Made by a program: the position numbers and the translations under genes. Of a DNA stretch of 64,000 bases, positions 410 to 58,080 are shown piece by piece. Position 1 is the stretch's first letter. Each line of letters starts with the position of its first letter. This DNA is from Daphnia carinata (lineage: Eukaryota). The notes under the pieces are model-generated. The model saw only the letters and a program-made list of their open reading frames with translations. It did not search any database and was not told the origin of the DNA. The stretch is taken from positions 5,642,001-5,706,000 of the forward strand of contig NC_081331.1 of assembly GCF_022539665.2 (NCBI RefSeq). The letters are read 5' to 3'.

Positions 410-847
410 ATTTCGTCGCGTATTGCCGTTACTTTTACGGACTGAAATCCTGTGTTTTGTTCTCTAAGATTTTTTTTTTCAGTGGCACTGTTTCTTTTGT
501 GCTCTATTCATTTAACTGGATTTGAATTAAACTAGGAGCTTTTAACAAAAATAAATCTATTTGGTTCAAAATTGGTTTCTGGCCACTGGGGGTGTGAACC
601 GTCATTGTTACATTTTGGTAAAACGGAGCTGATGGTTTAGGTTAGGGTAGTAGTAGTTAGTAAGTTTTTTTCTGGAGGCTATTTTTGATAAATGAATACG
701 GAAACGGGTATTAACGAATTTCTCCTAGAAATTCCATTTGCGTTATCACACCAGCTAAAGTTGCATCATAGACGTAATATATTTTTTGTTTTTTAGGATT
801 AATTCATTAACTATAAGGCCCATTGAAAAATGAACTTGATCTGCGTT

Positions 848-911
848 ATTAGCAGTAAAAGAGAAACAAGACCAACATTTTTAAATTTTTTTTTGGGTAA
901 AATGGATTGCC
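848..911 (-). mobile_element. Isolated right terminus of the GGCAATCC-TIR transposon family
   Basis: Ends ...GGGTAAAATGGATTGCC followed by AT (912-913); approximate reverse complement of 980-1045. No partner left end seen in the window. Confidence 0.7.
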
Positions 912-979
912 ATATACTCGAGCTATTGTTGCCTCTGCCGTCATTTTGTGCTGCCTAAGTTCATAAAATATCATTTTAT

Positions 980-1140
980 GGCAATCCGTTTTACCCAAAA
1001 TAAAAATAAAAAATATTGGCCTTTTGTTTCCTATTTACTGCTATCGCCATCTACCGGACATATTTCTAGTTAATTCTCTACGTACACTGACCGAAAACAA
1101 TTTTATGCCCGACTTTTCTCGGTCGGGGTTTTAAAAAAAT
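980..1140 (+). mobile_element. Left end of a GGCAATCC-TIR MITE, interrupted by the foldback element
   Basis: AT|GGCAATCCGTTTTACCC at 978-996; 990-1140 is an approximate reverse complement of ~6203-6337 and a direct copy of ~5902-6020. Confidence 0.7.
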
Positions 1141-1336
1141 GGCAATCCGTTTTACATTAAAAAAAAAGAAATGTCGGAAAAAAAAATCGCACTTTTTTCT
1201 TTTTTCCGACACGTAGCCATCTACCGCTGAGAATCGTTATTACTGGCGTAGGCAATTTCAGTCCATTGGATGCCATTCGCAGTTAGTTCAGTAGCGTGGA
1301 TGGAGAAAAACGCGTGGCTGGAGGAACAATTGAAAA

Positions 1337-2304
1337 ATGGATAAGATAATACAACAAAAGGATGGTAAGTATAAACATTATTATAGTGGTTTTCAATTAT
1401 TAATTATTGTTTATTAGATCAAATTATGAAGCTGCAGGCCCAATTATTGGAACAACACAAAATATTAGATACTGGTTGATCGGCCTATCTAGGAACAAAC
1501 ATTTTCCTTTTTCCCATTCAGGCTGTGAGACAAATTTGATTGTTTGTTATAACTACAACAACATTCCCTGCATAACGAAGGGAATGTTTACATTTTCTTT
1601 AGTGAACTTTTCCCTGAACTGTTGCCTGAAGTTAAAAATGTTTTGGAATATTTGGTTGGAGTTACGCTGATAATATTCAGTTGCAGTAATTGGATCTTGT
1701 CCTCTTTCTTGAGCAGCGTTTTGCCTTTTCAGCCATCGAAGAGGTGCTCAAAGATTATTAATTTTCTATCAATGACTGTCATTTGCCAAACATGTCTTCT
1801 TAAATAATTTGGTAATTGATTGATGGTTTCTAGATCATGAGTTTATTAAACAAAATATAATGGCCCCTAAAGATGTTTCATTTCGTTGGCATTGCAGCGA
1901 TGAACATCATACGTGGACTTTTTAGGTATGAAAGGAATTTTCTTGAAAATTTTTTGAATTTATGACAAAGCATTTCTCCTGCTTTTTGCCAACCATGTCT
2001 AATCTAAAAAAAAAATTTATCCAATAGGAAAGGATTTTCAGCATACTGGGAACACAACTATCAACAATGCAACATTCTAGGGGTGCTATTTTATCATTCA
2101 AGAGCCTTATACAATGATTTTCATCTGCAATTTGTATGGCCTTTCCCAAGCTTCTGCCAGAAGTTGAATCTATAAGGCATGTAAGTCACATGAGCAACAA
2201 TTGAAATGCTTAATGGTGTTGGTTTTCTTTTCTCAGCATAGGTTAATAGTAACATTGGATCTGAAAAGATTCTTGGTTGGGGCAAGACACTGAATAAATT
2301 GTAA
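1337..2304 (+). pseudogene. Decayed spliced gene in left arm of foldback copy 1 (internally deleted or replaced)
   Basis: ATG 1337 MDKIIQQKD|GTAAGT intron|DQIMKLQAQLLEQHKIL; resumes near 1858 and ends ...FPKLLPEVESIRH|intron|VNSNIGSEKILGWGKTLNKL*. Contains in-frame stops. Confidence 0.5.
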
Positions 2305-3054
2305 TGATTGAATGGATGACATGACATTTCTATACTTCATTCGGATTCCCGAGACGGTATTTTATATTTAAAAAATTGAAGTGCATATCTGGGCTCCCTT
2401 CCTTTCCGTAGCCCCGTTTCCCCTTGACTCGTAATAAGCCCGTAGGGGGTCATGCCCCTACTGTACGGTATATATAAAAACAACATATACCGAGGTTTGG
2501 AGGGCTCTGGCCGGAAAGGGGACGTGGGGGTCCGCTTAGTCCGATGATGTGTTCACGGAGGGCGACGTGGCTACCCACAAATCCGAACTAAAGGTTAATC
2601 GCTCCTGTAAAAATGTTCCAAATCTTCAGCTCTTCTTCCGGCTTCTCTTAGCCAATCACCGGGTAATCTCCCCGGTGGGTCAACAAGGCAGTGTCTCCCC
2701 CTGCCTGGGTTGACGGCAACTTTTGAAAGGGCTATTATGCCTTTTTAAAGTTGCAAAAATAATTGTAATGTGCAGAGAATTGTCAATAAAATTTTTTTTA
2801 TAAAATATTTTATCCAAAATTTGTTTCTTTCATTGTATGTTTTAGCCGTGTTCACACATTACATTTATCAACTTTTTTTTTTCTGCGCATTATTTGTTTT
2901 TGTCAACATTGATGGTAAGCATTGTTTCCATTGGTTTATCGTTTATCTGTAAGTATTCAATTATTATTTATTACACTCTTTGAATTTTTCCACTTAGATT
3001 CAAGGAACAACATGTAATATCTGGATATTTTTTAAAGTAATTTTGTACTTTGTT

Positions 3055-3127
3055 TTACCCGTATGGGAACCGATCCCCAGACATTCAGCGTGCAACGCCG
3101 ATGCTCTAACATTGAGCCACGAGATAT
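3055..3127 (-). pseudogene. tRNA-like unit 1 in foldback spacer (TGC at anticodon position)
   Basis: Minus strand GTG-GCTC-AATGTTA-GAGC-A-TCGGC-GTTGCAC-GCTGA-ATGTC-TGGGGATCGGTTCCCA: D arm and anticodon arm pair; T loop and acceptor stem are degenerate. Confidence 0.6.
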
Positions 3128-3222
3128 ATCTAAATATTTTATTATCGCATATTATATGTTATCGTCTAGGATGTTTATGCAGTCTTTCACAACTATATGT
3201 TTATCTTTCTATTTCTTTCATA

Positions 3223-3294
3223 AGGTTCATAGCTCTGTGGTAGAGCCTTCAGTTGCGATACCTGTTACCCTGGGATCAAACCTCAGTAGATGTG
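3223..3294 (+). pseudogene. tRNA-like unit 2 in foldback spacer (tRNA-Cys-like 5' half)
   Basis: CATAGCTCTGTGGTAGAGC...CTGGGATCAAAC; the copy-2 version reads TAGCTCTGTGGTAGAGCATTCAGCTGCA, close to the metazoan tRNA-Cys(GCA) 5' half. Anticodon stem is broken. Confidence 0.55.
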
Positions 3295-3410
3295 TAAAAA
3301 ATGAAGTACAATAAATGTAGAAGAGTATATTGCAGAATTGCATTTCCTTTTTATTCTAAGTGTAAATGCAAGTCCACAAGTAACTAGAAAAAAGCCAACT
3401 TGACATCATA

Positions 3411-3481
3411 TGATTCATGGCTCATTGGTAGAGCATCGGCGCGGTATGCCGAACATCCAGGGTTCGATCCCTGTATAATAA
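3411..3481 (+). pseudogene. tRNA-like unit 3 in foldback spacer with good Pol III A and B boxes
   Basis: TG-GCTC-ATTGGTA-GAGC-A-TCGGC-GCGGTAT-GCCGA-ACATC-CAGGG-TTCGAT-CCCTG: D, anticodon and T stems pair; A box TGGCTCATTGG, B box GGTTCGATCC; weak acceptor stem and no U33. Confidence 0.65.
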
Positions 3482-4135
3482 TAGAATACTAACATATAAA
3501 TGATAAACCAATGGAAACAATGCTTACCATCAAAGTTGACAAAAACAAATAATGCGAAGAAAAAAAAAAAGTTGATAAATGTAATGTGTGAACACGGCTA
3601 ACACATACAATGAAAGAAACAAATTTTGCAAAAAATATTTTATAAAAAAATTTTTATTGACAATTCTCTGCACATTACAATTATTTTTGCAACTTTAAAA
3701 AGGCATAATAGCCCTTTCAAAAGTTGCCGTCAACCCAGGCAGGGGGAGACACTGCCTTGTTGACCCACCGGGGAGATTACCCGGTGATTGGCTAAGAGAA
3801 GCCGGAAGAAAAGCTGAAGATTTGGAACATTTTTACAGGAGCGATTAACCTTTAGTTCGGATTTGTGGGTAGCCACGTCGCCCTCCGTGAACACATCATC
3901 GGACTAAGCGGACTTCCACGTCCCCTTTCCGGCCAGAGCCCTCCAAACCTCGGTATATGTTGTTTTTATATATACCGTACAGTAGGGGCATGACCCCCTA
4001 CGGGCTTATTATGAGTCAAGGGGAAACGGGGCTTCAGAAAAGAAGGGAGCCCAGATATGCACTTCAATTTTTTAAATATCAAATACCGTCTGGGGAATCC
4101 GAATTAAGTATAGAAATGTCATGTCATCCATCCAA

Positions 4136-5534
4136 TCAATACAATTTATTCAGTGTCTTGCCCCAACCAAGAATCTTTTCAGATCCAATGTTACTATTAA
4201 CCTATATTGAGAAAAGAAAAACAACACTGTTAAACATATCAATTGTTGATCATGTAACTTACATGACTCATAGATTCAACTTCTGGTGGAAGCTTGGGAA
4301 AGGACATACAAATTGCAGATTAACATCATTGTATAAGGTTCTTGAATGATAAACTAGCACCTGTAGAACGTTGCATTGTTGATAGTTGTGTTCCCAGTAC
4401 ATGAAAATCCTTGCCTATTGGATAAATTTTTTTTTGGTTGATTAGACCTGGTTGGCAAAAAGGAGGAGAAATTCTTCGTCATAAATTTAAAATTATTTGA
4501 AGAAAAATCCTTTCATACCTAAAGAGTCCATGTATGATGTTCATCTCTGCAATGGCAGCAAAATTAAAACATCTTTAAGGCCATTTAAGTACCCAATTTC
4601 CCCAACACTCTGAACATAAAGGACAAGTTGTTCTTTAGACAGAGAAGCAGAATTATTTGAGGCTTCTAGCTGTGACAGAACTATAAAGGATTGCTGTTGT
4701 ACTGGATTCATTAACACAAGATGGTACTTCTCATTAGGCAATTTGCATTACTCTATTAATTTACCTCACACCTTAACGGTAATGCACTCTCAGTGTTTTT
4801 TCATCTGTAGGCTCACTCTTCCATCCTGTAACACTTCCAGACTTGACTTGATCCCCCCGCTAAAATTCTGTGAATGCAAAATAATAGCATTAAAAATACT
4901 TTTTCGATAGACAAAGAACGGGGAAGTACCTAATCCATGTTTTAGGTTGAACTCATGCCATTTCTGTGTTTCCATACCACACCCATTTTCCGCCCAAATA
5001 CAGTACCACAATTCTTCAGTTCCTTCGCTGCATGGACTTATTACTAACAATTCTTTTAGTGCAGCACTAACAGAATTTAAATTTAACACACTGTCAGGTG
5101 GTGGACTGAATAACTAAACAATAAATAATTGTTTGTTAAAATTCTATACTTATTTGGAATTCTTATTTGGAAAGTTTAGGCACCTGACTGTGTTCACCTA
5201 ATGCCAACTCATCCTCACGTTCAGTTAGGGATGAGTTTTGAAAAACCTCCTTCACTGTTTGGAAACTGTTTTGTTCCAATTTCTTCTTTTCCCCTAGCTG
5301 AGCTTGTAGACTCAAAAATTTGAGCTACAAAACACGAATGAATAAAAGCAAATAAATAGAATCATTACGTATTAGGCCTACCATCCTTAGCTTCGTTGTT
5401 ATCTAATATTTTGTGTTGTTCCAATAACTGGGCCTGCAGCTTCATTATTTGATCTAATAAACAATAATTAATAATTGAAAACCAATATAATAATGTTTAT
5501 ACTTACCACTTTTTTGTTTTATTATCTTATCCAT
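4136..5534 (-). pseudogene. Decayed spliced gene in right arm of foldback copy 1
   Basis: Reverse-strand copy of the arm gene with ATG at 5534 and the same GT-AG intron positions; ORF-track fragments 4790-5089 and 4541-4741 are parts of it. Confidence 0.55.
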
Positions 5535-5901
5535 TTTTCAATTGCTCCTCCAGCCACGCAGTTTTCTCCAGCCACGCTGCTCAATTGAATGCTAATGGCA
5601 TACAATTAACTGAAATTGCATACATACTTGTAATAACGAAACCGACGGGTAGATGGCTACGGGTGGAAAAAAGAGAAAAAAGTGTGATTTTTTTTTTTTC
5701 CGCCATTTTTTTTTTTTTTCCATGTAAAACGGATTGCCATATCTATTGGTAAAGTACTCAGTTTTACTTCACTGAACGGCTCACGATGTTCAAGAAATTA
5801 GGGGCTTGAAAATAAGACCGACAAAATAAATAAGCCCGATTTTTCCCAAACAAAAGTTGGCGCGCCAGTACGGTACAGCGCGCTTGTAGAAAACAGCGTA
5901 T

Positions 5902-6490
5902 TGTATTCCGTTTTACCCCCCCCCCAAATATCGGCCTTTTTCTGTTCACTGCTATCACCATCTCCCGGTCAGATTTCTAGTTAATTCTTTATGTACAGTC
6001 AACCAAACAACCGAACAATTTTTCTGCTGCTTGGCGCTAGCTCTGTCGCGTACTGGTGCGCTAGATTGCCCCAAATATTTGGTGTATTTCAAAAACGATT
6101 AACTTTATGAAAAAATAGCAATTTTCCCCGAATCAGCATTCAGCTTTGCGTGTATCCTGTGATATTCAACCAATTCCTGTGAGTGGCAGTTTTTGCCGAA
6201 AAATTTTTTAAGCCCGACCGGGAAAAGTCGGGCTTAAAATTTTTTCGGTCAGTGAGTAGAAAATTGACTAGGAATGTGACCGGTAGATGGCAATAGCAGC
6301 CAAACAGAAAAAAAGGCCTTTTACTTTTATTTTGGGCATAGTCTTCTATAATAAACGGCCAGTAAGGAAAGTGGTGCTCGATTTGGGGTATTACGCCCTT
6401 CTGGCAATTTTAGTTTTAGGCGCAGGGGGTATTGCGCGCTTACTGGGCGTTTATTATAGTAGGCCATGATTTTGGGTTAAAAGGATTGCC
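5902..6490. mobile_element. MITE of the GGCAATCC-TIR family
   Basis: Degenerate left end AT|TGTATTCCGTTTTACCC; right end GGGTTAAAAGGATTGCC|AT (6491-6492); subterminal inverted segments ~5925-6020 and ~6240-6320. The right end could instead pair with the left end at 980. Confidence 0.6.
6340..6465. mobile_element. 126 bp mini-MITE nested in a MITE end
   Basis: AT|AGTCTTCTATAATAAACGGCCAGTAAG ... CTTACTGGGCGTTTATTATAGTAGGCC|AT: 27 bp imperfect TIRs with AT on both sides. Confidence 0.75.
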
Positions 6491-6526
6491 ATATTGCCAT
6501 ATGTACTCTTGTTTTTGGTTAACGAT

Positions 6527-7206
6527 ATGGATGCAGTTACACTCAATGAGCGATGCCTGGAAGATGACTACTATTACACATTAGGTTGCGATGATTCCTC
6601 CAGTGTGAGTTTCTGTCAGATTTGTGTTGTTTGTTCTTTTTTTTTAATTTTTCATATTCACTTCATACATGAATAGGTTGACCAAATATTAACTGAATAC
6701 AAACACAGAGTATTACTTTGTCATCCTGATAAGAATCCATATGATAAGTCCACTGCTCAGTTTCAAAAACTTCAGGTAAATAGATTCTGCACATTAACCA
6801 AGTAATGTGATAGATACAGTTAATTTCTGGTCATTCCAACAGGAAGCTAAGGAGGTGCTCTGTGACCCAGAAAAGCGAAATGATTATGACAGATGGAAAA
6901 CAAGTGGAATAACAATTTCATACAAGCAATGGATTGTCATAAATAAACAATCTGCTGCCGTAAGTATTACGTGTGCAATATCAGGATGTCATTCTATGTA
7001 GGTTTAAAGTAAAATAGATTGAAGTAATAAAATTAACACAGGTTCTTCACTGGGCCATACCAAAACATGAACAAAAAATGCTACAATCAAGCAGTAGCAA
7101 GTCAGAGATAATAAAACTGAAACAAAGCAAGCTTTCACTTAAAATTGGTTCTCAATATTGTACGTACAATTCCATCCTAGAAAAGTTTAGGAACTATGAA
7201 ATATGA
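6527..7206 (+). CDS. DNAJC12: J-domain co-chaperone, DNAJC12/JDP1-like
   Basis: Exons 6527-6604, 6677-6775, 6843-6959, 7042-7206 join in frame; J domain DYYYTLGC...CHPDKNP...FQKLQEAKEVL..PEKR..YD and the C-terminal KFRNYEI typical of DNAJC12. Confidence 0.92.
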
Positions 7207-7707
7207 AAAAGAAAATCGTGGAACATCTGAATTTATTTTACTAGCATATTCAATATTGACTGTTGCTGTTGCGTAAGATTAACTCGATGTAAAGCTTAAT
7301 AAAATATGTCCATATAAAGCAAGTATTTTTCGAACTGTTCGGTCATGAAGTTGAATGCTACTTAAATGGGTTCCAATCGACATTACTTGTGTATTCTCGA
7401 TCAGGCACTGGCATTTAAAGATGCACTTCTAGTTCTTCAAATGCTAATGTCCAATTAATCTCACCAAAGAAATACAACTGAAGTAGGTCAGTTTACTTTG
7501 TTCAACAACTTAGCCAGCTCCAGCGCCAAAGAAGTAAAATTAGGCGCAATTGTAAAGAGCTCGCATTGCCGATAGACAAATTAATCACCTACTGAATACT
7601 ACTGGAACGGATCTTTATTTCCTAAGGTTCTGCCATAATTGCCAATGATTAAAGTTACATGAGAAACTTGCACAATGCGCAAGAGAAGCTAAAACACGTT
7701 TCTTAAA

Positions 7708-8822
7708 TTAGGCTTCCAATTCCAGCGCCATACCCATTTTGTGACCTCCTTGGTTGAAGTTTTTCAGATCAACCATTGACGATAGGGTAATGGTAACACC
7801 TGAATACGAAAACGAATAAGCCTCAATATGATTCAACTTTCAGTTACAACGTACCCTGGCGGAGTTTTTGCTGATAGCCAAGGCCAAGCTGGGAAGCGTT
7901 ATTGATCTTGGCGCGGACTGCACTGTCGTTATCTAACTGGTACTTGCAACCAATACCGAATCGCGTGGCATTTGAACCGGCGGTCCAGGCAAGTTGGACA
8001 CCTGTTTCTAGATTAGAATTAACCTTTTGGAATAAGGCTCCACCGAATTCTTGTCCGTCGTTACTGTTCAAAAGATAAAATGAGGATTATCACAACGATT
8101 TGCGAATTCAAGCAATATGACGTACACGTTGGTGTGGAGTGCGAAATCTTTTGCTACATAGGCGATGGAGAAATTATTGCGGGTCAACTGGGACTTGGAC
8201 ATGTCGAATGACATTTGGTAGCCAGCTAGCCATCCCATGTAACCGCAAACGGCTGCGCCATTGACTGTTGGGCCACAATTAAGGTCCACATCAGCATTCA
8301 AGGTGGCAGTGTCATGCTTGAATTCAGCTTTGACGACACCAGTTTTCTTGCTGTATAAGAGTGAATGGGTCAAATAAAAAATGTATATATACATAATCTG
8401 ATGAAAATAAAAAACAATAAACATAACAAATATACCCTGTTTGAGGAGCAAAAGTGGAATCAAAGGTTAATTTTAATCCTTGAGCAATTTTATCTTGAAT
8501 GGCAATTTCAGTTCCAAGAGTGTTGTCTGTGTTCCAGCGCTCAGTGAAGGTCAAGCCTGAAAGATAGTTTGTTTTATAAACTGGTGTTGCAGAGAATACA
8601 CAAGCTTAGTCTGTGAACTATACCATATTCTGGAACCTTGTATTTGGTCTCCAAATTTCCAACCACTTTGCCACTGTCAAGGTTCGAAGAACCACCAGTA
8701 GTGAATTCAACTCCATTGGAAGTCTTCGTTTTGCATTCAAGCTTTAGCAGACTAAAATGATAGCCTTTGCCAAACACGTCACGGGAAGATTTGCCAAGAT
8801 CAGCATACACTGGAGGAGCCAT
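7708..8822 (-). CDS. VDAC: Voltage-dependent anion channel (mitochondrial porin)
   Basis: Exons 8624-8822, 8436-8556, 8126-8350, 7855-8063, 7708-7799; [21 protein letters not shown]...WNTDNTL...VNDGQEFGG...[17 protein letters not shown]. Confidence 0.97.
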
Positions 8823-9284
8823 GTTTAAGAGTAATGTACCTAGCAGACAACAAAGAAAATTACTTTTCATTAAATGAAAAAAAATAATAATAAGGAAGAA
8901 GGTGGTGCTACAACTGATAACTTTGAATGCAACTTCTTATATCGTTATTATGAACATCAAATGCATAAAAGAACATATACTTCAGAGAAGTCAGCCATTT
9001 TTGTTCACGTTACGAACCGGTTAAAACGAGTATAAAATGGTACTATCCTCGCATAACTATGGTTAAATTTTATGAACTGAAATCAACCAAGCTGTTTACA
9101 CGTACATTTTAATACTAGTTTACTATACTATGATATAAAAATCGTAAAATACCTGGAGACTTCTGACGACGTAAAAACCAGCTACCTTCGTGTGGCTGTG
9201 TGTGTGGAAGATTTCTGCTGCCGAAGGAAATTGCTTGGGACGAGACCGATTATTTAACCATATACACGATCTCGATACTCCATG

Positions 9285-9535
9285 TATCGATACACACAAA
9301 GGGCGACGCCTTACAATGGATTGTGCAACTCAACGTAGAAATCCTTCGAAGTGCTTACTGCATTGAATCCTTCTCGAAGCCCCTTCCAGTTCGCTATAGA
9401 AAATATCATGTTGATCTGTATAAATGCACGCATGGAGAACCTTTCTTGAATATGCTACTTTAAATAAACATAGCAAATTTTCACATCAAGCTTATCTTGT
9501 CATGTTCCCTCTATAAAAATACCGCATTATCGATA
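9285..9535. promoter_or_regulatory. Two DRE-type elements (TATCGATA) upstream of VDAC
   Basis: Perfect TATCGATA at 9285-9292 and 9528-9535, upstream of the VDAC 5' region; DRE is an arthropod housekeeping promoter motif. Confidence 0.5.
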
Positions 9536-10601
9536 CTTAGTTTTTAAATAATTTAATTTTGCTGTCGCTATTAGTATAAAAATCCTAAAATAAATTGTTT
9601 TTGGATTTGATTGGTTTTGAACAAGACAACATAAGTGAGAACAAACGAATATCGTGGTGACAACTGTATTTATTCATATTCATTTTAGATGGGCTACAGA
9701 CATCGTAGAACATGAGGAATGGGGATGGGGAGGTGTAAGAAACAACCAACTAATAGATAAGAGTAAACAGACAACGTATTTTGGAATAATAAAACCACCA
9801 ACGAAGGGTAAACGGTGAAAGAGACGGAAAGAATTTGTCTTGTGTGTAGGTGTATACAAGAAGGACAAACAAGTGGGGGTGAAAGAGGAGATGGCCATAC
9901 GTTCGCAACATCCACAAAAATGAAACTCAGCTCCTTTTTTTTCATCATTTCTGGAAAAAAAAAAAACTTAAGCCAAGCATATCGTCGTCCCACTCCATAA
10001 ATAAACCAAACGAATTTCTCTTCCGATGACAACACACTTTAGCCAAGACAAGTGGAATGAAAATGTACAAGTTACTAGAACTCGATCAAACCTGGTATGT
10101 GAAGAGTACCGAAAGGTAAGAAATCGCTGGTGGTATGAAAGGTGACGCAAGCGGGCAGCGGAGAAAGGTGAAAAATCATCCATAACTGGTGGACATCGCA
10201 CTACTATGGTTTGGTTTATATCTCCGAAGAGACTGATTCAAGGGACTTTAAGCATCAGAATACATTCACAAACACAAAAAAAAAAAAAAAAGAAAAAAAT
10301 CACCAATCAATCAACTGCAAAAAGAAAACATTTAGCCGTAAATATTGGCTCAGTTGGTTTCCGCCGGCATCGACAGACAGCGGAAGCAGTTGGCTACTAC
10401 TACTTCACTTAGCCTCAGGCCGATAAGTTGTTCTAAAATCTAGCGTCGGAATTTTCTTGTCCGCACACTCCACGAATTTCTAACAATCTTGCTGGTAACT
10501 TACTTCTCATTCTAAAAACACTTGGAAAGGAACGCCAAAGAAAAGAACACGAACGCCGCTGACAAAACCAGTGAAGAAAATGACACCAGAATTTAAATTC
10601 T

Positions 10602-17112
<6,511 letters not shown>

Positions 17113-17300
17113 TATGACGGTCTGATGGTACAATCTAAGTAGGAAAACTCTTCTTTATCGGGATTTTTTTTCCAAATAGCCTCCTGAGAAACCGAACGGT
17201 ATACGAAAGAGACCTCACGATTCTGTCACACCAGTCTTACACACAGGCAAGCCCTATCTCACGGCTTGCCAACGCAAGTTGTGTAGCCTCCGCTGTGACG

Positions 17301-17311
17301 GCCGCCATTTT
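17301..17311. promoter_or_regulatory. YY1-like motif upstream of clathrin heavy chain
   Basis: GCCGCCATTTT ~190 bp upstream of the ATG; motif match only. Confidence 0.3.
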
Positions 17312-17833
17312 TTCCAAATTGATTTAGAAATCCTGCATTTTAATGCATTTTAAAGGAAGAAAATATTCTAAATGACCATTCTATTAGTTTAAATATTCCA
17401 AAATTCAAAATTATGGTGAATTTTAAAAGTTTTTGCAGCTTTTGTTTTGGAACTATATTGTGCGTGAATTTGATATTGAAACCGCCCCCTTTAGTGGACT
17501 AACGATGGCGGGATGTAGACCTCTGAGAAAGAACAAAAATTAAAAAAAATATTTTTAACGCCCCCATTTAAATGTCGAATATCCCGGTGATCGTACCTTG
17601 AAAAAGAAATAGGATAGCCAACCGAGTGTACACGGGGTTTGTTATGAACATGATCTATTTCGCCGTTACGCAGCAACGTACAGATTGAGTATTCACCACA
17701 ACTAGGCATGAAGGTAAGAGAAAAAGAAATATGAAAACAAAATAACAATTAACCAAAGGAAGAAATATTGAGGAAACGGTGCATAGTGTGGAGGATGTGA
17801 ATTCTGGTTCATTGTGGTCAGTTTTGTTTTTGG

Positions 17834-20800
17834 TTATCGGTCATCTTCGTCGTCCTCGTCCTTAATGATTCCCAGTCTTTTGGCAACGGACTTGACAGAA
17901 TTGATGACTTCTTCCTGAACCAAATTGAAGGACATGGCCAGCAGAGCGATACCAAAAAGCAGGTAGAGGGAGCAGAGGGCAATGCTAACTTCGACATTCT
18001 CTTTGACGTTCTGGGCCGGCACAAAGTCGCCGAAACCAATTGTGGTAAGTGTTATGAAACAAAAGTAAGCCGAGTCGAGGAAGGACCACTGCTCCCAACC
18101 GCTGAACAGGAAGGCACCGCCGAAAATGTAGCCGACGACGAGCAGAATGCTCAGCCAGATCGGCACCGGTTTGTTGTGGTGTTGATCGTTTTCCTCTTCA
18201 TCCGAGTCGATATAGTCGTCCTCGTAGACGTAGTCGTCATCGTAGTCCACTTCTTCCTGCTCGGTCAGTCGGCTGAGGCGATTGCTGCCGCCGCTACCAC
18301 TGCCAGCACCAGAAGTTCCAGCTATGCTCACACGTCGTGCGTCATTATTGCGTCACGGAGAGAAATCGATAACGGAGATATCCACACGCCCGACAGTTGA
18401 GAAAAAAAAAAAAGGAAACGAGATTATTATTCAAAGTGTCTCTTTCCTGCCAATTAATTAGGACGAGCCTATATCGACCCAATCTCGTCGAAGACATGCA
18501 AATGAGTCCCGATTTAACGGCGGTAACTTACGTGATCGGTTGGAATAACGATGTGGCGTAGGTCTCATCATCTCTTTGCCTTCAACAACGTCCAGATCAG
18601 ATTCCAATTCTAAACGATCGTGCCGTTTATCACTACCGCCACGATTTCGATCGACCCCCTTTCAAATGATGGAAAAAAGACACTTCACGTCATGTTACTA
18701 TGACGGGCTGGTGTGACACCATAACATAAACATACCGATTTATTATTAGAGTCGATGGGATGGTCGGTTTTAGTTCGTGCGTTATTTTCAACCTGGTCAT
18801 CGGCGTATTTATTAAAGAATCCACTTTCCATGGCGTTGGGATCGCCCGTCTTCGGTGCGTTAGGACTGGACGGGGTTGATGGTGGGTAATCAACCCCATT
18901 ACCCCCAGGACTCGTTTCCGTTTCCGCGTTGTTCCCACGACCTGAGCGGCTCGTTCCGGATGGAGCAGCACCCGACGGTCTGTTGTTCCGGCCGTGATGT
19001 TGAGAACGTCGGCCTCTCTGTGGCCCGTTCATCTGTTGCATCATCTCAAATTCCCGATCAGTCTCGTCGTAAAATCTGCGGTTAAACTTTTTGTCCATCA
19101 GTTTGTCATCTCTTAAAGGATGTGTTGTTTTTTATTTTTTTTTGTTTCGTTACTTGGACTCTTGATCCGTTTCGGAAAAGGATGAACGCGAGACGGCGCT
19201 GTCAGACATGGCTGAGTCGGCCGAACGTTGCGAAAAACGCTGCGAACGTCGCAATGAATTCACTTTACCACCAGGCCCTCCAGCTGCTGAGGATTGGTAC
19301 CTTCACGTTGGTGTAACACTCTTTTACTAGAAATTCATTCAAAACAGAAAACGTGAATGATGAATCACCTGGCCGACTGTCTGCCGCTGTTGGAACGTCT
19401 GGTGCGTTGTCGCCTCAATCGTGACTTTTTCGGCTTTCGGGTGCAAACGTAACAGCAAACTTTCCAATAGAGGAACCGGAACGAGTGGGCCATCTGTGTA
19501 ATATGACGTATATCTAACTGACGACTTTCATTTCTTTTTGATTGATTAAAAGATATTGGGCGTTTTCTTTTAAATGCTTTACCGCATCGCCGATGTTTGC
19601 CAAACAGAGCAGCATCAAAGGGATACCGAGAATGGCGTAAAAGATTGTCACCCTATGTAAATAATAATTTCAATTATTTACCATAAAATGAATTTGAAAA
19701 GAACAGATACTCACATTTTACCCCATGGCGTTTTCGGGGCAATGTGTCCATATCCTGCCATCACAAAATACAATGAAGTAATTAGGGGGGATCGTGTTGA
19801 AAAGCTTTAAAATAGAAACCAATTAATAATATGTAAATGAGGAAAATAAGTCAAGGATATCGGCAGAATTTCGTCAAACTGTTTCAGGGTTTTTTTTCAT
19901 TTCCCCATGTTTCGAAACGTGTCACGCCCACGACTTTGATCGGGAAATGATTATTTATGACGCCATCGGTGCTGGTGAGGGAAAGTTGTTTGGTCTTTTG
20001 CGACAGTTTCGCTTTCAAACATTGTTGTGATATACCCCCCCAAAAAAATACGAGACGTTAGGGGATCCCATCAAATCGAGAGAAAATTGGATGTTGGTTT
20101 TATCCGTACAAACCGCAATGCAACACAAAGACCTCTCTGTATTTATTTATTTTTTTTTTTACATTCAGTACAAACATACACGCACCTATCTAGAGTGCTT
20201 CGATTGCAACACTCTTTAGCCTTCCTGGATATATAAACCAACTCTGCGAAAGTGATCCATACAGTCAGTCGTTCTCCGTCGAGGCATTTACACACATTCC
20301 CAACTTAGAGATGGCAACTACGAGGTATATTAACACAATTTTCAATTGCTAGTAAATCATTCTAATTCATTTAACCAATATTTAATTTAAAAAAAAAAAA
20401 AAAAAGACGCGATTCCGTGATGTGGCATTGCCTATTTCTCCTCATCGTTGCAATTGTCTGCCTGGGCCAAATCGATTTCTTCGACAACCGTTATTCTTTC
20501 GTGAGAACAATGATCACGTTTTTCTTTTGAGCCAATCTCGACTACTAATCATTTTTTTTTTTTTTTTAAATATAAAATATAAAACTTTCTCTATTGTTTC
20601 AAACAGCAACGGCCAGTATCAGCTGTGGTAGACATCAGAGGCACTTCCAAATATCCCGGCATTAGCGGCCAAATTCATTTCACGCAAACGACGGCAGGTG
20701 GACCCGTCATCGTTCGCGGGACTGTCTTTGGCCTGACTCCCGGTCTTCACGGCCTTCACATTCACCAGTTTGGCAGCTTGTCTGACGATTGCAACGCGGC

Positions 20801-22298
20801 TGGACCGCATTTTAACCCATTCAACGTATACAACACAAATACCAACGATATTCAAATAACAATTTATTAAAACTACCCCATTCATTTGTTTGATGCCTCG
20901 ATCCCTATACAGAACGATCACGGAGGCGTGAGCGATCAATCCCGTCATGTTGGTGACTTGGGCAACATCGATGCCATAGGCGACTATCACACCCAAGCTG
21001 ATATCTTCCTGTTTGACCATTTGATTTCCTTGTCACAGAAATCCGAACGCAGCATCCTCCATCGGGCCGTCGTCATCCACGAGAGGGCCGACGATTTGGG
21101 ACTTGGCTATCATCCGGACAGCAAGAAAACGGGCAATTCCGGAAGCCGAGTGGCTTGCGGAATCATTGCGTTAACATCGTCACGTTCTCCTTATCACTAT
21201 TGATTTCACTCGTACGAAACAAAAAATGAGTGTAATGGATGACCAATGATGATGGATATGACGTGCTGTTATCTCTCTGTTTAATGTTTCAAAAATGACG
21301 ATCGTTTTCAACATCGCAGGTGTGTACATACGAAAAAGAAATAGAATACCCCTTTTGTGTGCATCATGGCGTTTTGTTTAGTCTATATAACTGTAAACGG
21401 ATATATGAGCCCCCTGTTAAAAAAAAAACGAGATGAGGGGGGGGGACATAATATCTTGTTGTGCAACTTTTGCTAAGATAGTTCACGCATTTTGTTTGTT
21501 GTTGTTTGCGAAGGTAAAAAAAAAAAAACGACGAGTCAGAGGCAAAAACGATGGTGCGCGTCTCTTGTATCTGGGAGAGAGTTTATATACATCGAACCTC
21601 TTGAACACTGTGCAGCCTCGGAGACGAGGCCAGAAATAGCCCAGCCGTTGAAGATATAGGGTGAGAAGAGACTGTTTTTATCTCTTTCCTTACATCTTTT
21701 GTCACTTCACTATCGTCTGATGCGACTTCGAAACAAAAAAAAAAAAAAAAAGAAAAAGAAAAAACACCCTGGGTAGGCAGTGCTTTTACGTCTTATATCC
21801 TGTTTCAACTCTCTTTACTCATTCAAATTGGCAGTTAAAAGTTTAAAGACGATTCATACCGATGGTCGTAATTAGAATGATGGAGTAGAAAAGAGCTCCG
21901 GCCAGGGTCCATTGAACTTTGTCCGTCTCTTCGCTGCCGTCCCATCCCTTCTTCTTCATCGATTCGATCAGATGCGTCTCGAATTTCTTGAGACGGTCCG
22001 TGACGTTGGTGGTCCACTCCTCCTGGACGAGCACGTCCATTTTGTAGGTGAAACGCCACAGGTCGTCGGTGACGCTCTCGCGGACTTTAATCATTTCGCG
22101 CTTGACCTGCAGCTCGTGCTTGGCTTCCAGCGCTTCGAACGTGAAGGCGCCCATGATGCAATAGCCGACGACGAGGGAGACAAGACCGATGTGCGACACT
22201 AGAAAAGTCGCGATGTTGCGTAAATAAAACAGACACTTGCCCTTTGGTTTCTCGCTAACGCCATTGTCTCCAGGCCCACCACCCGATGAAGAAGCCAT
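17834..22298 (-). CDS. Two-pore-domain (K2P/TWIK family) potassium channel
   Basis: Exons 21860-22298, 19715-19754, 19583-19652, 19369-19493, 19154-19300, 18736-19075, 18532-18658 and a last exon ending 17834 (its acceptor is uncertain). Two pore loops ITTIGYG and LTTIGFGD; GIPLMLLCLANIG; an acceptor just upstream of the ATG implies further 5' exon(s). Confidence 0.92.
20230..20270 (+). promoter_or_regulatory. TATA box plus Inr-like site for the nested SOD gene
   Basis: TATATAAA at 20230-20237, ACAGTCAGTC at 20261-20270, ATG at 20311. Confidence 0.55.
20311..21203 (+). CDS. Cu/Zn superoxide dismutase, probably secreted (SOD3-like)
   Basis: Exons 20311-20324, 20407-20500, 20607-20825, 20913-21203. 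Hydrophobic leader MWHCLFLLIVAIVCLG; ligand motifs HGLHIH, GPHFNP, DHG, RHVGDLGNI, VVIHE and GSRVACG are all present. Confidence 0.93.
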
Positions 22299-48387: not shown

Positions 48388-48925
48388 AGCCTTCCCACTT
48401 TTGTCAAAATCGGTCAAAAACGAAATCTCTTGGAATTCGACGAAACTCACACAGTATAATAAAACTGAACGCAGATTTCAATTCAGCTATTACTTTTTTC
48501 CCTAACCCAGCCGTTTTGAAAATAAAAGAAAACAAAGTGCTGTTAGCGACACTTTTTTTGCGCCGTAGCGTACTAGCGCGCTAACGTTATCAATTATTCG
48601 GTGTTTTTCAAAAACGATTGACTTAATGGAAAAAAGAACAAGTTTATCGAAATCAACATTCAATTTTAAGTATATCCTGTGATTTTCATCCAATTCCAAT
48701 AAGTGTCAATTTTTTTATGTATAAATTTTAAGCCCGACAAAATAAGCCCGACAAAATAAGCCCGACAAAATAAGCCCGACTTGTGTTTTTGACGTATAAT
48801 GTTAAAACTATAAGACCTATTGAAAAATAACCTTGATTTCCGTGGCAAGCATTCGATTCTGAAACGGAATCATGTACTTTTAATCAAATTTCAATTTTGG
48901 CCAAAAATGAAAAAATGAGAAGGCT
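48388..48925. mobile_element. 538 bp MITE with AGCCTT...AAGGCT termini
   Basis: AT|AGCCTTCCCACTTTTGTCAAAATCGGTCAAAA ... TTTTGGCCAAAAATGAAAAAATGAGAAGGCT|AT; internal 48560-48700 resembles 6036-6200. Confidence 0.7.
48729..48780 (+). repeat. 14 bp tandem repeat (TAAGCCCGACAAAA) x3.7
   Basis: Exact tandem copies; the core recurs singly at ~5832, ~6210 and ~48088 (reverse). Confidence 0.9.
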
Positions 48926-49155
48926 ATTATGGCAATCCGTTTTATATGGCAATTCGTTTTACACCAAAAAAAAAAAAAGTTCGCCAAAAAAAAAAAAAAA
49001 AATCACACTTTTTTCTTTTTTTTCCGACACGTAGCCATCTACCGCTCAGACTCGTTATTACTGGCGTAGGCAATTTCAGTCCATTGGATGCCATTCGCAG
49101 TTAGTTCAGTAGCGTGGATGGAGAATAACGCGTGGTTGGAGGAACAATTGAAAAA

Positions 49156-50552
49156 TTGATAAGATAATACAACAAAAGATGGTAAGTATAAACATTATTA
49201 TATTGGTTTTCAATAATTAGTTATTGTTTATTAGATCAAATTATGAAGCTGCAGGCCCAATTATTAGAACAACACAAAATATTAGAGAACAGCAAAGCTA
49301 AGGATGGTAAGGCCTAATACGTAATGATTCTATTTATTTGCTTTTATTCATTCGTGTTTTGTAGCTCAAATTTTGAGTCTACAAGCTCAGCTAGGGGAAA
49401 AAAACAAATTGGAACGGAACTGTTCCCAAAACAGTGAAGGAGGTTTTTCAAAACTCATCCCTAACTGAACATGAGGATGAATTGGCATTAGGCGAACACA
49501 GCCAGGTACCTAAACTTTTCAAATAAGAATTCAAAATAAGTATATAATTTTAACAAACAATTATTTATTGTTTAGTTATTCAGTCTACCACCTGACAGTG
49601 TGTTGAAGTTAAATTCTGTTAGTGCTGCACTAAAAGAATTGTTAGTAATAAGTTCATGCAGCGAAGGAAGTGAACAATTGTGGGACCGTATTTGGGCTGA
49701 AAATGGGTGTGGTAAGGAAATCCAGAAATAGCACGAGTTCAACATAAAACATGAATTAGGTACTTTTCGGTTTTTTGTCTATCAAAAAAGTATTTTTAAT
49801 GCTATTATTTTGCATTCACAGAATTTTAGTGGGGGATCAAGTCAAGTCTGGAAGTGTTACAGGATGGAAGAGTGAGCCTACAGTTGAAAAACACTGAAAG
49901 TGCATTACCATTAAGGTATGAGGTAAAGTAATAGAGTATGCAAATTGTCTAATGAGAAGTACCATCTTGTGTGAATGAATCCTGTGTAACAGCAATCCTT
50001 TATAGTTCTGTCACAGCTAGAAGCCTCAAATAATTCTGCTTCTCTTGCTAAAGAACAACTTGTCCTTTATGTTCACAGTGTTGGTGAAGCTGGGTACTTA
50101 AATGGCCCTAAAGATGTTTTAATGTTGCTGCTGTTGCAGAGATGAACATCATACATGGACTCTTTAGGTATGAAAAGAATTTTCTTCAAAATTTTTTGAA
50201 TTTATGATGACGAAGCTTTTCTCTTCCTTTTTGCCAACCAGGTGTAATCTACAAAAAAAAAAAAATTTTATCCAATAGGAAAGGAATTTCAGCATACTGG
50301 GAACACAACTATCAACAATGCAACATTCTAGGGGTGCTATTTTATCATTCAAGAGCCTTATACAATGATTTTCATCTGCAATTTGTATGGCCTTTCCCAA
50401 GCTTCTGCTAGAAGTTGAATCTATAAGTCATGTAAGTCACATGAGCAACAATTGAGATGCTTAATGGTGTTTTTCTTTTCTCATTGTAGGTTAATAGTAA
50501 CATTGGATCTGAAAAAATTCTTGGTTGGGGCATGACACTGAATAAATTGTAA
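49156..50552 (+). pseudogene. Decayed spliced gene in left arm of foldback copy 2 (most complete version)
   Basis: GT-AG introns at 49182-49234, 49307-49364, 49506-49575, 49760-49821, 50432-50489 (53-70 bp) separate coding-like segments; ATG mutated to TTG; several stops and frameshifts. Confidence 0.6.
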
Positions 50553-51224
50553 TGATTGAATGGATGACATGACATTTCTATACTTCATTCGGATTCCCGA
50601 GACGGTATTTTATATTTAAAAAATTGAAGTGCATATCTGGGCTCCCTTCCTTTCCGTAGCCCCGTTTCCCCTTGACTCGTAATAAGCCCGTAGGGGGTCA
50701 TGCCCCTACTGTACGGTATATATAAAAACAACATATACCGAGGTTTGGAGGGCTCTGGCCGGAAAGGGGACGTGGATGTCCGCTTAGTCCGATGATGTGT
50801 TCACGGAGGGCTCTGTGGCTACCCACAAATCCGAACTAAAGGTTAATCGCTCCTGTAAAAATGTTCCAAATCTTCAGCTCTTCTTCCGGCTTCTCTTAGC
50901 CAATCACCGGGTAATCTCCCCGGTGGGTCAACAAGGCAGTGTCTCCCCCTGCCTGGGTTGACGGCAACTTTTGAAAGGGCTATTGTGCCTTTTTAAAGTT
51001 GCAAAAATAATTGTAATATGCAGAGAATTGTCAATAAATTTTTTTTTTTTAAAATATTTTTTGCAAAATTTGTCTCTTTCATTGTCTGTGTTCGCTGTGT
51101 TCACACATTACATATATCGCCTTTTTTTTTAATTAGCTTGCTCAATTCACCTATATTGTTTTATGCCAGCTTTGTTGGTAACCATTGTTTCCATTAGTTT
51201 ATCGTTTATCTGTAGGCATTCAAT

Positions 51225-51647
51225 TATTATCCAGGGATCGAACGCTGGATGTTCGGCATACCGCGCCGATGCTCTACCAATGAGCCATGAATCATATGAT
51301 GTGAAGTTGGCTTTTTTCTAGTCACTTGCGGACTTGCATTTACACTTTGAATAAAACTGAAATGCATTACTGCAATATTCTTTTCTCCATTTAGATATAG
51401 ATCTTTATACATCTAGTAAGTTTTGAACCCAGGGTAACAGTTATTGCAGCTGAATGCTCTACCACAGAGCTATGGACCTTACGAAAGCAATAGAAAGATA
51501 AACATATAGTTGTGAAAGACTGCAGAAACATCCTAGACGATAACATATGATATGCGCTAATAAAAATTTTAAATATATCTCGTGGCTCAATGTTAGAGCA
51601 TCGGCGTTGCACGCTGAATGTCTAGGGATCGATTCCCATGCCAGTAA
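51225..51647. pseudogene. Three tRNA-like units in the copy-2 spacer
   Basis: Unit 3 at ~51225-51294 (-), unit 2 at ~51409-51479 (-), unit 1 at ~51576-51647 (+); homologous to 3411-3481, 3223-3294 and 3055-3127. Confidence 0.6.
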
Positions 51648-52387
51648 AACAACATATAAATACAAAATAACTTCAGAAAATATCCAGGTATTACACGTTG
51701 TTCCTTGTCTAAGTTCAAGAATTCAAAAAGTGTAATAATAATAATTGAATACTTACAGATAAACGATACAACGGTGGCAAAAACAATAAAGATGAATTGA
51801 GCAAGCTAAATAAAAAAAAATTGGTAATTGTAATGTGTGAACAAAGCGAACACAGACAATGAAAGAGACAAATTTTGCAAAAAATATTTTATAAAAAAAA
51901 ATTTATTGACAATTCTCTGCATATTACAATTATTTTTGCAACTTTAAAAAGGCACAATAGCCCTTTCAAAAGTTGCCGTCAACCCAGGCAGGGGGAGACA
52001 CTGCCTTGTTGACCCACCGGGGAGATTACCCGGTGATTGGCTAAGAGAAGCCGGAAGAAGAGCTGAAGATTTGGAACATTTTTACAGGAGCGATTAACCT
52101 TTAGTTCGGATTTGTGGGTAGCCACAGAGCCCTCCGTGAACACATCATCGGACTAAGCGGACATCCACGTCCCCTTTCCGGCCAGAGCCCTCCAAACCTC
52201 GGTATATGTTGTTTTTATATATACCGTACAGTAGGGGCATGACCCCCTACGGGCTTATTACGAGTCAAGGGGAAACGGGGCTACGGAAAGGAAGGGAGCC
52301 CAGATATGCACTTCAATTTTTTTAATATAAAATACCGTCTCGGGAATCCGAATGAAGTATAGAAATGTCATGTCATCCATTCAATCA

Positions 52388-53571
52388 TTACAATTTATTC
52401 AGTGTCATGCCCCAACCAAGAATTTTTTCAGATCCAATGTTACTATTAACCTACAATGAGAAAAGAAAAACACCATTAAGCATCTCAATTGTTGCTCATG
52501 TGACTTACATGACTTATAGATTCAACTTCTAGCAGAAGCTTGGGAAAGGCCATACAAATTGCAGATGAAAATCATTGTATAAGGCTCTTGAATGATAAAA
52601 TAGCACCCCTAGAATGTTGCATTGTTGATAGTTGTGTTCCCAGTATGCTGAAATTCCTTTCCTATTGGATAAAATTTTTTTTTTGTAGATTACACCTGGT
52701 TGGCAAAAAGGAGGAGAAAAGCTTCATCATAAATTCAAAAAATTTTCAAGAAAATTCCTTTCATACCTAAAGAGTCCATGTATGATGTTCATCTCTGCAA
52801 CAGCAGCAACATTAAAACATCTTTAGGGCCATTTAAGTACCCAGCTTCACCAACACTCTGAACGTAAAGGACAAGTTGTTCTTTAGCAAGAGAAGCAGAA
52901 TTATTTGAGGCTTCTAGCTGTGACAGAACTATAAAGGATTGCTGTTACACAGTATTCATTCACACAAGATGGTACTTCTCATTAGACAATTTGCATACTC
53001 TATTACTTTACCTCATACCTTAATGGTAATGCACTTTCAGTGTTTTTCAACTGTAGGCTCACTCTTCCATCCTGTAACACTTCCAGACTTGACTTGATCC
53101 CCCACTAAAATTCTGTGAATGCAAAATAATAGCATTAAAAATACTTTTTCGATAGACAAAAAACCGAAAAGTACCTAATTCATGTTTTATGTTGAACTCG
53201 TGCTATTTCTGGGTTTCCGTACCACACCCATTTTCAGCCCAAATACGGTCCCACAGTTGTTCACTTCCTTCGCCGCATGGACTTATTACTAACAATTCTT
53301 TTAGTGCAGCACTAACAGAATTTAACTTCAACACACTGTCAGGTGGTAGACTGAATAACTAAACAATAAATAATTGTTTGTTAAAATTCTATACTTATTT
53401 TGAATTCTTATTTGAAAAGTGTAGGTACCTGACTGTGTTCACCTAATGCCAATTCATCCTCATGTTCAGTTAGGGATGAGTTTGGAAAAACCTCCTTCAC
53501 TGTTTGGAAAGTGCCCTGTTCTAATTTGTTTTTTTCCCAGTAACTACTTAATTGTAGACTCAAAATTTGAG
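52388..53571 (-). pseudogene. Decayed arm gene in right arm of copy 2, first two exons deleted
   Basis: Near-exact reverse complement of 49365-50552. Confidence 0.55.
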
Positions 53572-54039
53572 CTAAAAAACACAAATGAGAAAAAAAAGAA
53601 AAAATTGTGATTTTTTTTTTTTGGGGGGGGGGGTAAAACGGATTGCCATAGTATTTAACAGTATTAAGCGTCGAATAAAAAATCAGTACCAACTTTCTAT
53701 CAAGAATTTTTACTGCAGACGATCCCCCAAACACTATAGCCACCTATTGGTACGATATTCAGTTTTCTGCATTGGGTTTCAGCGATCGTCCGGGGCAAGA
53801 CTAAGGGCTGTAGCAACTTTCACTTCTAATAATTCAAATGCCATAAGGTTCACGTGTAAAAGATATCAATTTTCGTAATCCTTGCTTAATTTAGCTTAAA
53901 ATACATTATTCCGATTTGAAATTGAACGCTGATCACGAATATCGGCTTTGTTTTGACATTGGGCATAACAAAACGGAGAAAAACGAAGAAAATGACCGTG
54001 GAAAAATTGCCTCAAAAACCGTCAAAAATTGACCATCGT

Positions 54040-54450
54040 TGGAATTGCTTGAAAATGCCAGAATATACTCAAAATCGAATACTGATTTCGAGAAAATTGC
54101 TATTTTTTTTCATAACATCAACAGTTTTGGAAAAACACCGAATTAAAATACGACTGGCGCGCCAGTACGCTACAGCGCTAGCATGACACATCAAAGTTAT
54201 TCAATTCGATATATTTCCAAAACGATGATCTAATAAGCAATAATAAATAATTTAAAACCAATATAATAATCTTTATACTTACATCCTTATCTTTTATTAT
54301 CTTATCCATTTTTAAATATTTTTCTCCAGCCACGCGTTTTTCTCCAGCCACGCTACTCAACTCACTGCCATTGGGATCCAATGGACTCAAATTGCCTACA
54401 TGCCTGTAATAACGAGTCTGACCGGTAGATGGCTACGGTCGAAAAAAAAA
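54040..54450 (-). mobile_element. Diverged fragments of the same transposon families
   Basis: 54050-54182 resembles the reverse complement of 6036-6190; 54225-54450 is a diverged reverse copy of the foldback subterminal region including the MDKIIKDKD exon. Confidence 0.65.
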
Positions 54451-54871
54451 GAATTTATATATTTTTAACTAAGTCTCAAATTTAGCCAAAATGAGACAAT
54501 AATTAGTAGGCATAAATGTGAAGAGATTGGGGGCTTCTTTTAATCTTTACCTTAATTCATATAGAAGCCTTTTCCCTAACCTGGTAACATAAAGGTGAAG
54601 CAAAACTTTTTTCCCTACCAATCAACAGAACAATATCATTGATCAAATTCAATTGATGGAATTGATGAAGCAACACGTCAATGAAAGTTTATCACCGTTT
54701 CGGTTTATTATTGAAATTGCACAAAGAGAACTGAATTCTTTTGGAAGTCCGACATCGCCACTGTGATGAATACACGGTTGCTTTCTTCAGGTAAAACAAT
54801 TATACCCCCCAATTTTATGGTAAACGTGAAATTCTGAATCGCTTGTGAAGTTCTAGTTTTAACATACTTCT

Positions 54872-57800: not shown

Positions 57801-58080
57801 CATTCTTATCGAGTACAACTTTTCGAGGTTTGCGCCTACCATAGTACAATTCTCCATTTTTCAGCTTCAAAGAATTAGCATAAGAATTATGAAATAACAA
57901 CTGTATATGAGATGCAAAAAAAACACAATAGCATACGAAATAATTTGCGGCTTGTGTTCTGATCCATTGGGCTTTTGTGCTGGTATTGATGTTCACCCCA
58001 GTTGGATCTTCAAGATAACGAAGAATTTCTACATAATACTTTTCGTTGTCTAATTCGTGGTCATCATTAAAACACGCCAT
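54872..58080 (-). CDS. Chimeric protein: degenerate Gypsy/Ginger-like integrase plus four transposase-type HTH repeats (~904 aa)
   Basis: Exons 57937-58080, 57756-57864, 57313-57703, 57065-57248, 56549-57002, 56262-56484, 55384-56206, 55095-55322, 54872-55030 total 2715 nt in frame. H2C2 motif IHVDGTKGFHNG...FW...YVQNCMVC; repeats of the type YPPQFRLEIGRFAAEYG.....F.......ESTVR. Confidence 0.8.

Follow-up and report, generated by a model that had tools for sequence, protein, structure and literature searches.

A conserved, hairpin-rich block in palindromic repeats of Daphnia carinata as a candidate 3′ end of a spliced transcript

What is the role of a GC-rich block that recurs four times in a 64,000-nucleotide stretch of Daphnia carinata DNA (the window, from here on)? 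An earlier note had placed this block just past the stop codon of a cargo gene, and had left three options for it: a structured non-coding RNA, a cis element for replication or resolution of the palindrome, or a promoter.

The four copies are indeed found at the positions already named, and a model of the 5′ part returns exactly four strong matches in the 64-kb window. The GC-rich island is equally clear, with a GC of 0.50 at 2370-2760 against 0.31-0.35 in the arms, and both the GC and the CpG of the block are higher than those of the cargo gene. There is one copy per arm of two palindromic elements, with the 3′ ends facing inward. These elements are about 4.6 kb each, and their 2.2-kb arms each carry a spliced gene. 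The order within an arm is outer end, spliced gene, block, AATAAA and AT-rich tail, and the arms meet tail to tail. The bounds given before need correction: the unit is real, but the first 30 bases lie outside the conserved part, which starts near 2370 and ends at the AATAAA of 2785-2790 (about 420 bases). The “cargo stop” is also only partly what it was taken for, since the frame that stops at 2302-2304 is a broken one further downstream, about 700 bases past the end of the annotated protein. The main features are the following.

1141-5738, no strand: palindromic element A, with inverted GGCAATCC ends and AT outside (end motifs, arm comparison).
48931-53647, no strand: palindromic element B, with GGCAATCC ends as in A; it is A inverted, with the spacer in common.
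2370-2791, plus strand: module copy A1 with corrected bounds (cover in other organisms begins at 2364-2373 and ends at 2791; 5′ edge common to metagenome contig L002).
3652-4073, minus strand: module copy A2 (match to the 5′-part model).
50618-51039, plus strand: module copy B1 (match to the 5′-part model).
51901-52322, minus strand: module copy B2 (match to the 5′-part model).
2785-2790, plus strand: AATAAA, a likely poly(A) signal that ends the unit, present in 4/4 arms (similarity in runs X6 and X20 stops at 2791).

The block is more conserved than the adjacent arm sequence. Among the four arms, 13/391 columns are variable in the block versus 32/321 upstream and 18/151 downstream (Fisher p 3e-4 for each flank). 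When A2 and B1 are compared over the whole arm, the differences amount to 10/390 in the block, 134/1658 upstream and 22/160 downstream. The block is therefore kept about three times better than its flanks (10/390 vs 134/1658), and these counts also place it above the cargo coding exons. The inner arms of element B (50256-51070 and 51870-52684) are 99% identical to each other and have 0/318 differences upstream of the block, where A1 and A2 differ by 8%. This homogeneity of B1 and B2 fits arm-to-arm gene conversion.

In terms of structure, all five stems named before are present, together with the CCAAT and CTTCCGG motifs. The list was right in what it held but missed a sixth hairpin, of 16 pairs, at 2716-2754; the GGGCT..AGCCC stem exists in the sequence, but it has several possible partners and is an unstable call. 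Predicted folding is weak at the earlier bounds (z of -1.9 on the plus strand and -2.7 on the minus strand, against shuffles). At 2370-2760 it beats the shuffles, with z -4.2 for RNA on the plus strand and 0/100 shuffles as good. As DNA, the same interval gives z -4.2 on the plus strand and -4.5 on the minus strand, again with 0/100 shuffles as good in each case. Five local hairpins (2442-2461, 2466-2492, 2657-2677, 2679-2714 and 2716-2754) are predicted with p of at least 0.93 in 4/4 copies, and the long-range helices vary among the copies. Windows of 120 bases over the last three hairpins (2657-2754) reach z -3.1 to -4.7 on the plus strand, and the most conserved 120 bases alone fold no better than shuffles (z 0.15).

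2370-2465, plus strand: 5′ domain with pyrimidine tracts and the first hairpin; most conserved and most abundant part (by the L002 match and X6 depth).
2399-2521, plus strand: predicted long-range helix 2399-2408 / 2512-2521, p 0.87 in A1.
2442-2461, plus strand: predicted hairpin GTAGGGG..CCCCTAC, p 0.98 in 4/4 copies.
2466-2492, plus strand: predicted hairpin CGGTATAT..ATATACCG, p 0.96; C2490T retains the pair as G·U.
2657-2754, plus strand: three adjacent predicted hairpins, 2657-2677, 2679-2714 and 2716-2754, p 0.93-0.99 in 4/4 copies.

The long-range helix has p of about 0.67 in B1 and B2 and is absent from A2; both C2402T and C2407T retain it as G·U. As for L002, the hairpin at 2442-2461 shows one two-sided change and two broken pairs there, and other sequence stands in the place of the hairpin at 2466-2492. 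In A1 the two ends of the block may pair with each other (2382-2388 with 2768-2774, p 0.82), with a different pairing in other copies. When read by hand, the pyrimidine tract 2417-2424 can be matched in parallel to the purine tract 2515-2522, and L002 keeps both tracts. Such a match would allow an internal triple helix, in which 2399-2405 might also take part.

Good folding of both strands as DNA (z -4.2 and -4.5) invites the reading that the hairpins act as single-stranded DNA, either as a rolling-circle terminus or as a site of palindrome resolution, and the location of the block near the symmetry centre and the homogenised B1/B2 arms (0/318 differences upstream) are in line with it. We consider this quite unlikely. 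The canonical Helitron 3′ end has CTRR and then T after a hairpin, and no CTRRT end is found on either strand of 2341-2900, nor any subterminal inverted repeat beyond A/T runs. Furthermore, the sequences beyond the edges look by hand like diverged homologues, not insertion sites, and the substitution pattern leans to the transcribed strand. Nothing positive points to the role of a DNA-level replication or resolution element.

That pattern comes from 39 substitutions, taken from contig variants in other runs and classed against the fold of each strand; variants that duplicate these or agree with copy A1, and one further change at 2707, were left out of the set. Against the plus-strand fold, 26 are unpaired, 9 keep the pair and 4 break it (2640, 2656, 2716 and 2717); against the minus-strand fold the counts are 22, 5 and 12. 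Within Watson-Crick pairs of the plus fold, 8/10 transitions give G·U on the plus strand. At unpaired sites C>T (5) and G>A (4) are about equal, which is evidence against a plain mutation bias. Each of the tests is borderline (p 0.063 by Fisher, 0.055 by the binomial and 0.055 for the excess at unpaired sites) and the substitutions are not independent, so that the lean of stem substitutions to G·U-tolerant pairing on the transcribed plus strand is suggestive only. Changes at 2683-2685 and 2707-2708 in X6 and X20 turn an internal loop into a continuous stem (read by hand). Covariation, which the earlier note had looked to, appears in part: 5/58 consensus pairs change on both sides in a four-row alignment that includes L002, but there is one divergent row and the structure comes from the same rows. 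Taken at the level of sequence, the evidence for an RNA structure on the sense strand is consistent but not proven.

Evidence on transcription comes mainly from run X1, which is labelled “DNA?”. Its contigs skip GT-started stretches at the cargo exon ends, and the junction of exons 1 and 2, as the RefSeq protein implies it, has a depth of 1502. Over the gene and the block the depth is in the thousands; at the AATAAA it drops from 1561 to 163, and in mid-spacer it is down to 1-2. Because of these exon-exon joints and the near absence of mid-spacer cover, X1 is probably RNA; processed DNA copies are less likely. The best-supported description of the block is then the 3′ end of a sense, spliced cargo transcript, from contigs that give no strand, ends or level. 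The earlier suggestion of a structured non-coding RNA stands in so far as structured, transcribed RNA is the best supported of its three options; what the data favour is the 3′ end of the spliced cargo RNA, not a separate small RNA. The depth ratio between the block and the element ends is about 20 in the RNA run X18 and about 28 in the DNA run X5, so no special RNA abundance of the block is shown.

The same data bear on the promoter option, under which the block would be a GC-rich promoter or enhancer with TATA, CCAAT and ETS-like motifs. These motifs are present in 4/4 window copies, and GC and CpG exceed those of the cargo gene. Outside the window, however, CCAAT has become CCACG in 8930/12398 of the X6 depth and 449/458 of the X20 depth, and CTTCCGG varies. 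Both motifs lie outside the part common to L002, the TATA-like loop is absent from L002, and X1 depth drops after the block rather than starting there. A promoter or enhancer is very unlikely, and as the main function of the block we reject it.

Upstream of the block lies a gene with matches of 63-96% to Daphnia carinata RefSeq proteins. Its family consists of 12 clusters with 92 member sequences, all of them named D. carinata among the matches listed, which are spread over many large scaffolds, several with neighbouring locus numbers. All four copies in the window arms are broken, for example these two.

4804-5534, minus strand: spliced orphan cargo gene of arm A2, with a coiled-coil start and an additional base in exon 3 (exon-wise identity to P0002 77-89%; X1 joints).
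49155-49881, plus strand: cargo copy of arm B1, with the start codon lost and in-frame stops (alignment to the family).

No Pfam match was obtained for any of 5/5 cargo fragments. A search among 1.84 billion representatives returned one match, in the same family, and no relative outside it; no longer relatives were found, and an atlas search gave no usable match. The AlphaFold model of the protein is poor (mean pLDDT 47, pTM 0.23).

Some rearrangements of the cargo were also observed. In arm A1 an unrelated segment (1472-1858) replaces exons 3-5 and encodes FPELLPEV, which is close to the FPKLLPEV of a late exon at ~2140-2165. A detached 5′ end of the cargo gene (exon 1 and intron 1) lies at 54226-54453 on the minus strand, just outside element B, whose right arm is without the part formed by exon 1 and intron 1.

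The block is present in part in 23/24 listed runs, from 13 studies. Eight of the 24 runs were compared in detail (X1, X5, X18, X22, X6, X2, X3 and X20), and the absent cargo cover in X18 and X22 was left out of the evidence. For X5, a DNA run of organism B compared over the whole arm, the summed depth of the block is 3,700-21,500 and most of the cargo gene has none. For X6, from organism C and compared over the block alone, the first 100 bases have a summed depth of 43-61 thousand and 2466-2754 have 1-23 thousand, with single long contigs at about 50. Although a summed depth cannot be read as a copy number, these values point to hundreds of block variants. Similarity in other organisms starts at 2364-2373 and stops at 2791. 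Since the loose ends resemble the flanks in the window itself when read by hand, these edges look like limits of constraint and not like insertion points. X5 and X6 each have a contig without the inner 264 bases (2392-2657, or 3786-4051 in A2), where the first 21 bases are joined directly to the three 3′ hairpins.

A pattern scan of metagenomes gave two loci. One, L001, is a match of 23 bases that arose by chance within a bacterial coding region, and we excluded it from every count. The other, L002, is a true relative, with the common 5′ edge, 88.6% identity over 105 bases and motif islands to ~2605. It keeps the single-stranded linkers of the block and has an unrelated, spliced, intron-containing gene upstream. 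After the shared part, L002 has a hairpin-rich 3′ domain of its own (730-925, minus strand; z -3.1 for the whole stretch), a hint at subfamilies in which one 5′ domain is combined with different 3′ domains. In viral contigs and prokaryotic genomes, pattern scans gave no match.

We read the block, with its ~420 bases and many predicted hairpins, as the RNA 3′ end of a spliced transcript of the palindromic element, which would finish and protect that transcript, and we give this reading a probability of about 0.5. Transcription would start at each outer end of the palindrome and pass the cargo exons before it enters the module, which would then fold on the nascent sense strand, stabilise the RNA against 3′ decay and end the transcript before read-through into the opposite arm, and less long double-stranded RNA would, we propose, be made from the palindrome as a result. 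A transposase acting in trans could move the whole unit by its outer GGCAATCC ends. Cargo genes would turn over fast, with the module kept and reused by different ones.

The module might instead be a functional RNA in its own right, released from the precursor as a ribozyme, RNP scaffold or decoy, with the orphan genes as interchangeable host transcripts. Its conservation above that of the coding exons and its occurrence behind unrelated genes would suit such an RNA, as would the linkers kept in L002, the A1 ends that can pair and the possible triple-helix tract match. Against this, no Rfam match is better than E 2.6, no hammerhead or HDV core is seen in three copies, X18 has no RNA enrichment over the DNA pattern, and the end pairing differs among copies. 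We regard an excised RNA as unlikely. A bolder proposal, possible though doubtful, is that the block is a ~420-base, undescribed class of structured RNA, perhaps triple-helical or catalytic, which is itself the selfish unit: it would exist in hundreds of copies throughout water-flea genomes, recruit interchangeable orphan spliced genes as hosts for its transcripts, and drive or protect amplification of the tail-to-tail palindromes.

For the elements themselves, mobility is inferred from their dispersal and their ends, as the analysis found neither a transposase nor a target duplication nor an empty site. AT lies outside 8/8 ends of this type in the window, and TA fits 7/8 equally well; the base before AT is T at 7/8 ends and A at 1/8. 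A second pair of GGCAATCC ends (window 980-6490) encloses element A, and a further end at 911 (850-911) faces outward; the GGCAATCC family seems to insert into or beside itself. Beside element B, at 48730-48780, a 14-base unit that begins AAGCCCGAC occurs four times in tandem, in the manner of the subterminal repeats of DNA transposons. Related copies lie at 1107, 5815, 6207 and 48085. Intronless ORFs are found at 55324-58080 on the minus strand, between element B and a JmjC gene. Among them is an ORF with an integrase zinc-binding domain (Pfam E 1e-8); the others in that interval gave no match. The host genes of the window (porin, clathrin, Patched-type and JmjC) have short introns.

The centre of element A has a feature of its own.

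2968-3474, no strand: central spacer with three decayed tRNA-like pieces (3055-3126 minus, ~3228-3298 plus, 3411-3481 plus).

Rfam tRNA values are E 3.9e-5 and 0.39 for two of these pieces, an alignment supports three, and ARAGORN calls no tRNA on them. The pieces are mirrored at 51220-51660, and the outer two point from the centre toward the 3′ end of each block. They could be insulators or antisense Pol III promoters.

Daphnia genomes contain many orphan multicopy genes. In the present case, about 90 annotated proteins of one orphan family seem to be carried as cargo by a palindromic mobile repeat, and it is a structured, non-coding 3′ module, rather than the protein, that relatives have retained. 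If this is true, the module would be a marker by which to recognise pseudo-families of this kind among annotated genes, and an RNA structure that Rfam lacks. The many diverged genomic copies and the shortness of the RNA make it amenable to covariation, probing and reporter work.

The Rfam scan that had been proposed did not place the block in a family: there is none at E up to 5, the best values being 5.7 for a short stretch and 2.6 for L002, all far below gathering (membership in Rfam 15 is a covariance-model match at the gathering score). Hammerhead cores (CUGANGA, then GAAA within 80 bases) were found on 0/6 strands of three copies, and the one CTGAAGA present, on the minus strand, is not followed by GAAA within that distance. 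HDV-like ribozymes are described by a P3 stem with an L3 loop motif, and this core was likewise found on 0/6 strands of three copies. TTAGG telomere repeats are copied from a telomerase RNA template of about 1.5 repeats; the only match to such a template is 6 bases long, on the minus strand, and is absent from L002. Resemblances to 7SK, RNase MRP, group II intron domain V, twister and pistol, judged by eye, were dropped: they have no Rfam backing, and those compared with L002 failed there.

The literature search found no description of the element, with three sequence motifs in no main text searched. The searchable part of the PMC2884549 supplements, where the D. pulex consensus set is only partly covered, has none of five motifs. 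The structured module of this Daphnia palindromic repeat is apparently undescribed; the repeat may already be catalogued, for example in the D. pulex consensus set, without its RNA structure.

Among known systems, ISL2EU and Spy, cut-and-paste elements of the PHIS group with long TIRs, have, in the accessible portions of PMC4482050 and PMC4122938, inverted ends with AT outside, as elements A and B do; for Spy, TIRs of up to ~1.5 kb are reported. The ISL2EU target A|AT|T (available part of PMC4482050) is not what we see, with A before AT at 1/8 element ends. Elements A and B also differ in that their ends are not GGANNNNG, their 2.2-kb arms hold a spliced gene, and no transposase was found.

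Helentrons, HINE and DINE-1, going by the accessible part of PMC4067079, share with the block elements a high copy number, a conserved core, 3′ hairpins and gene capture. Helentron and HINE have subterminal inverted repeats of 12-15 bp and a 3′ stem-loop in that source, whereas the longest inverted matches of the arms are A/T runs. In addition, the block has six hairpins over 400 bases, in contrast to the one short 3′ palindrome given there for Helentron.

Non-autonomous Penelope-like copies, in the part of PMC8557442 available, have common 3′ ends, retained introns and inverted arrangements, all of which recall the block elements. By analogy, the module could be a 3′ handle for a reverse transcriptase acting in trans. 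It ends a spliced transcript at AATAAA, its copies retain introns and exist in many variants, and the variant without the inner 264 bases keeps both ends, all as such a handle might. The geometry is opposite, however: the block elements are arranged tail to tail, and the inverted Penelope-like copy of that source is at the 5′ end. Both elements have defined inverted 5′ ends instead of random truncation. There is no upstream block copy (pseudo-LTR), hammerhead core or reverse transcriptase to be seen, and no poly(A) tail in the DNA. We hold the handle to be improbable, at about the level of the single-stranded DNA reading, and prefer the 3′ end that finishes and protects a transcript.

Lastly, the nearest functional counterpart is the ENE, a triple-helix element that the Evade retrotransposon carries in its 3′ UTR. 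This ENE makes the RNA more stable and increases mobility, and it requires a U-rich internal loop flanked by G-C pairs (accessible text of PMC12501189). The block has no run of four U at 2364-2720 and no U-rich internal loop; U runs of at least 4 are confined to the sequence ahead of the module, the last hairpin and the part that follows the AATAAA. It is also GC-rich, multi-branched and about 420 bases long, in an element with inverted ends and introns. Because the U-rich loop is absent, the block is not an ENE, but it may act like one: with X1 read as RNA, its place is the 3′ UTR, ahead of the poly(A) site, and like the ENE of Evade in that text it is a structured RNA that a mobile element carries between its coding end and its poly(A) site.
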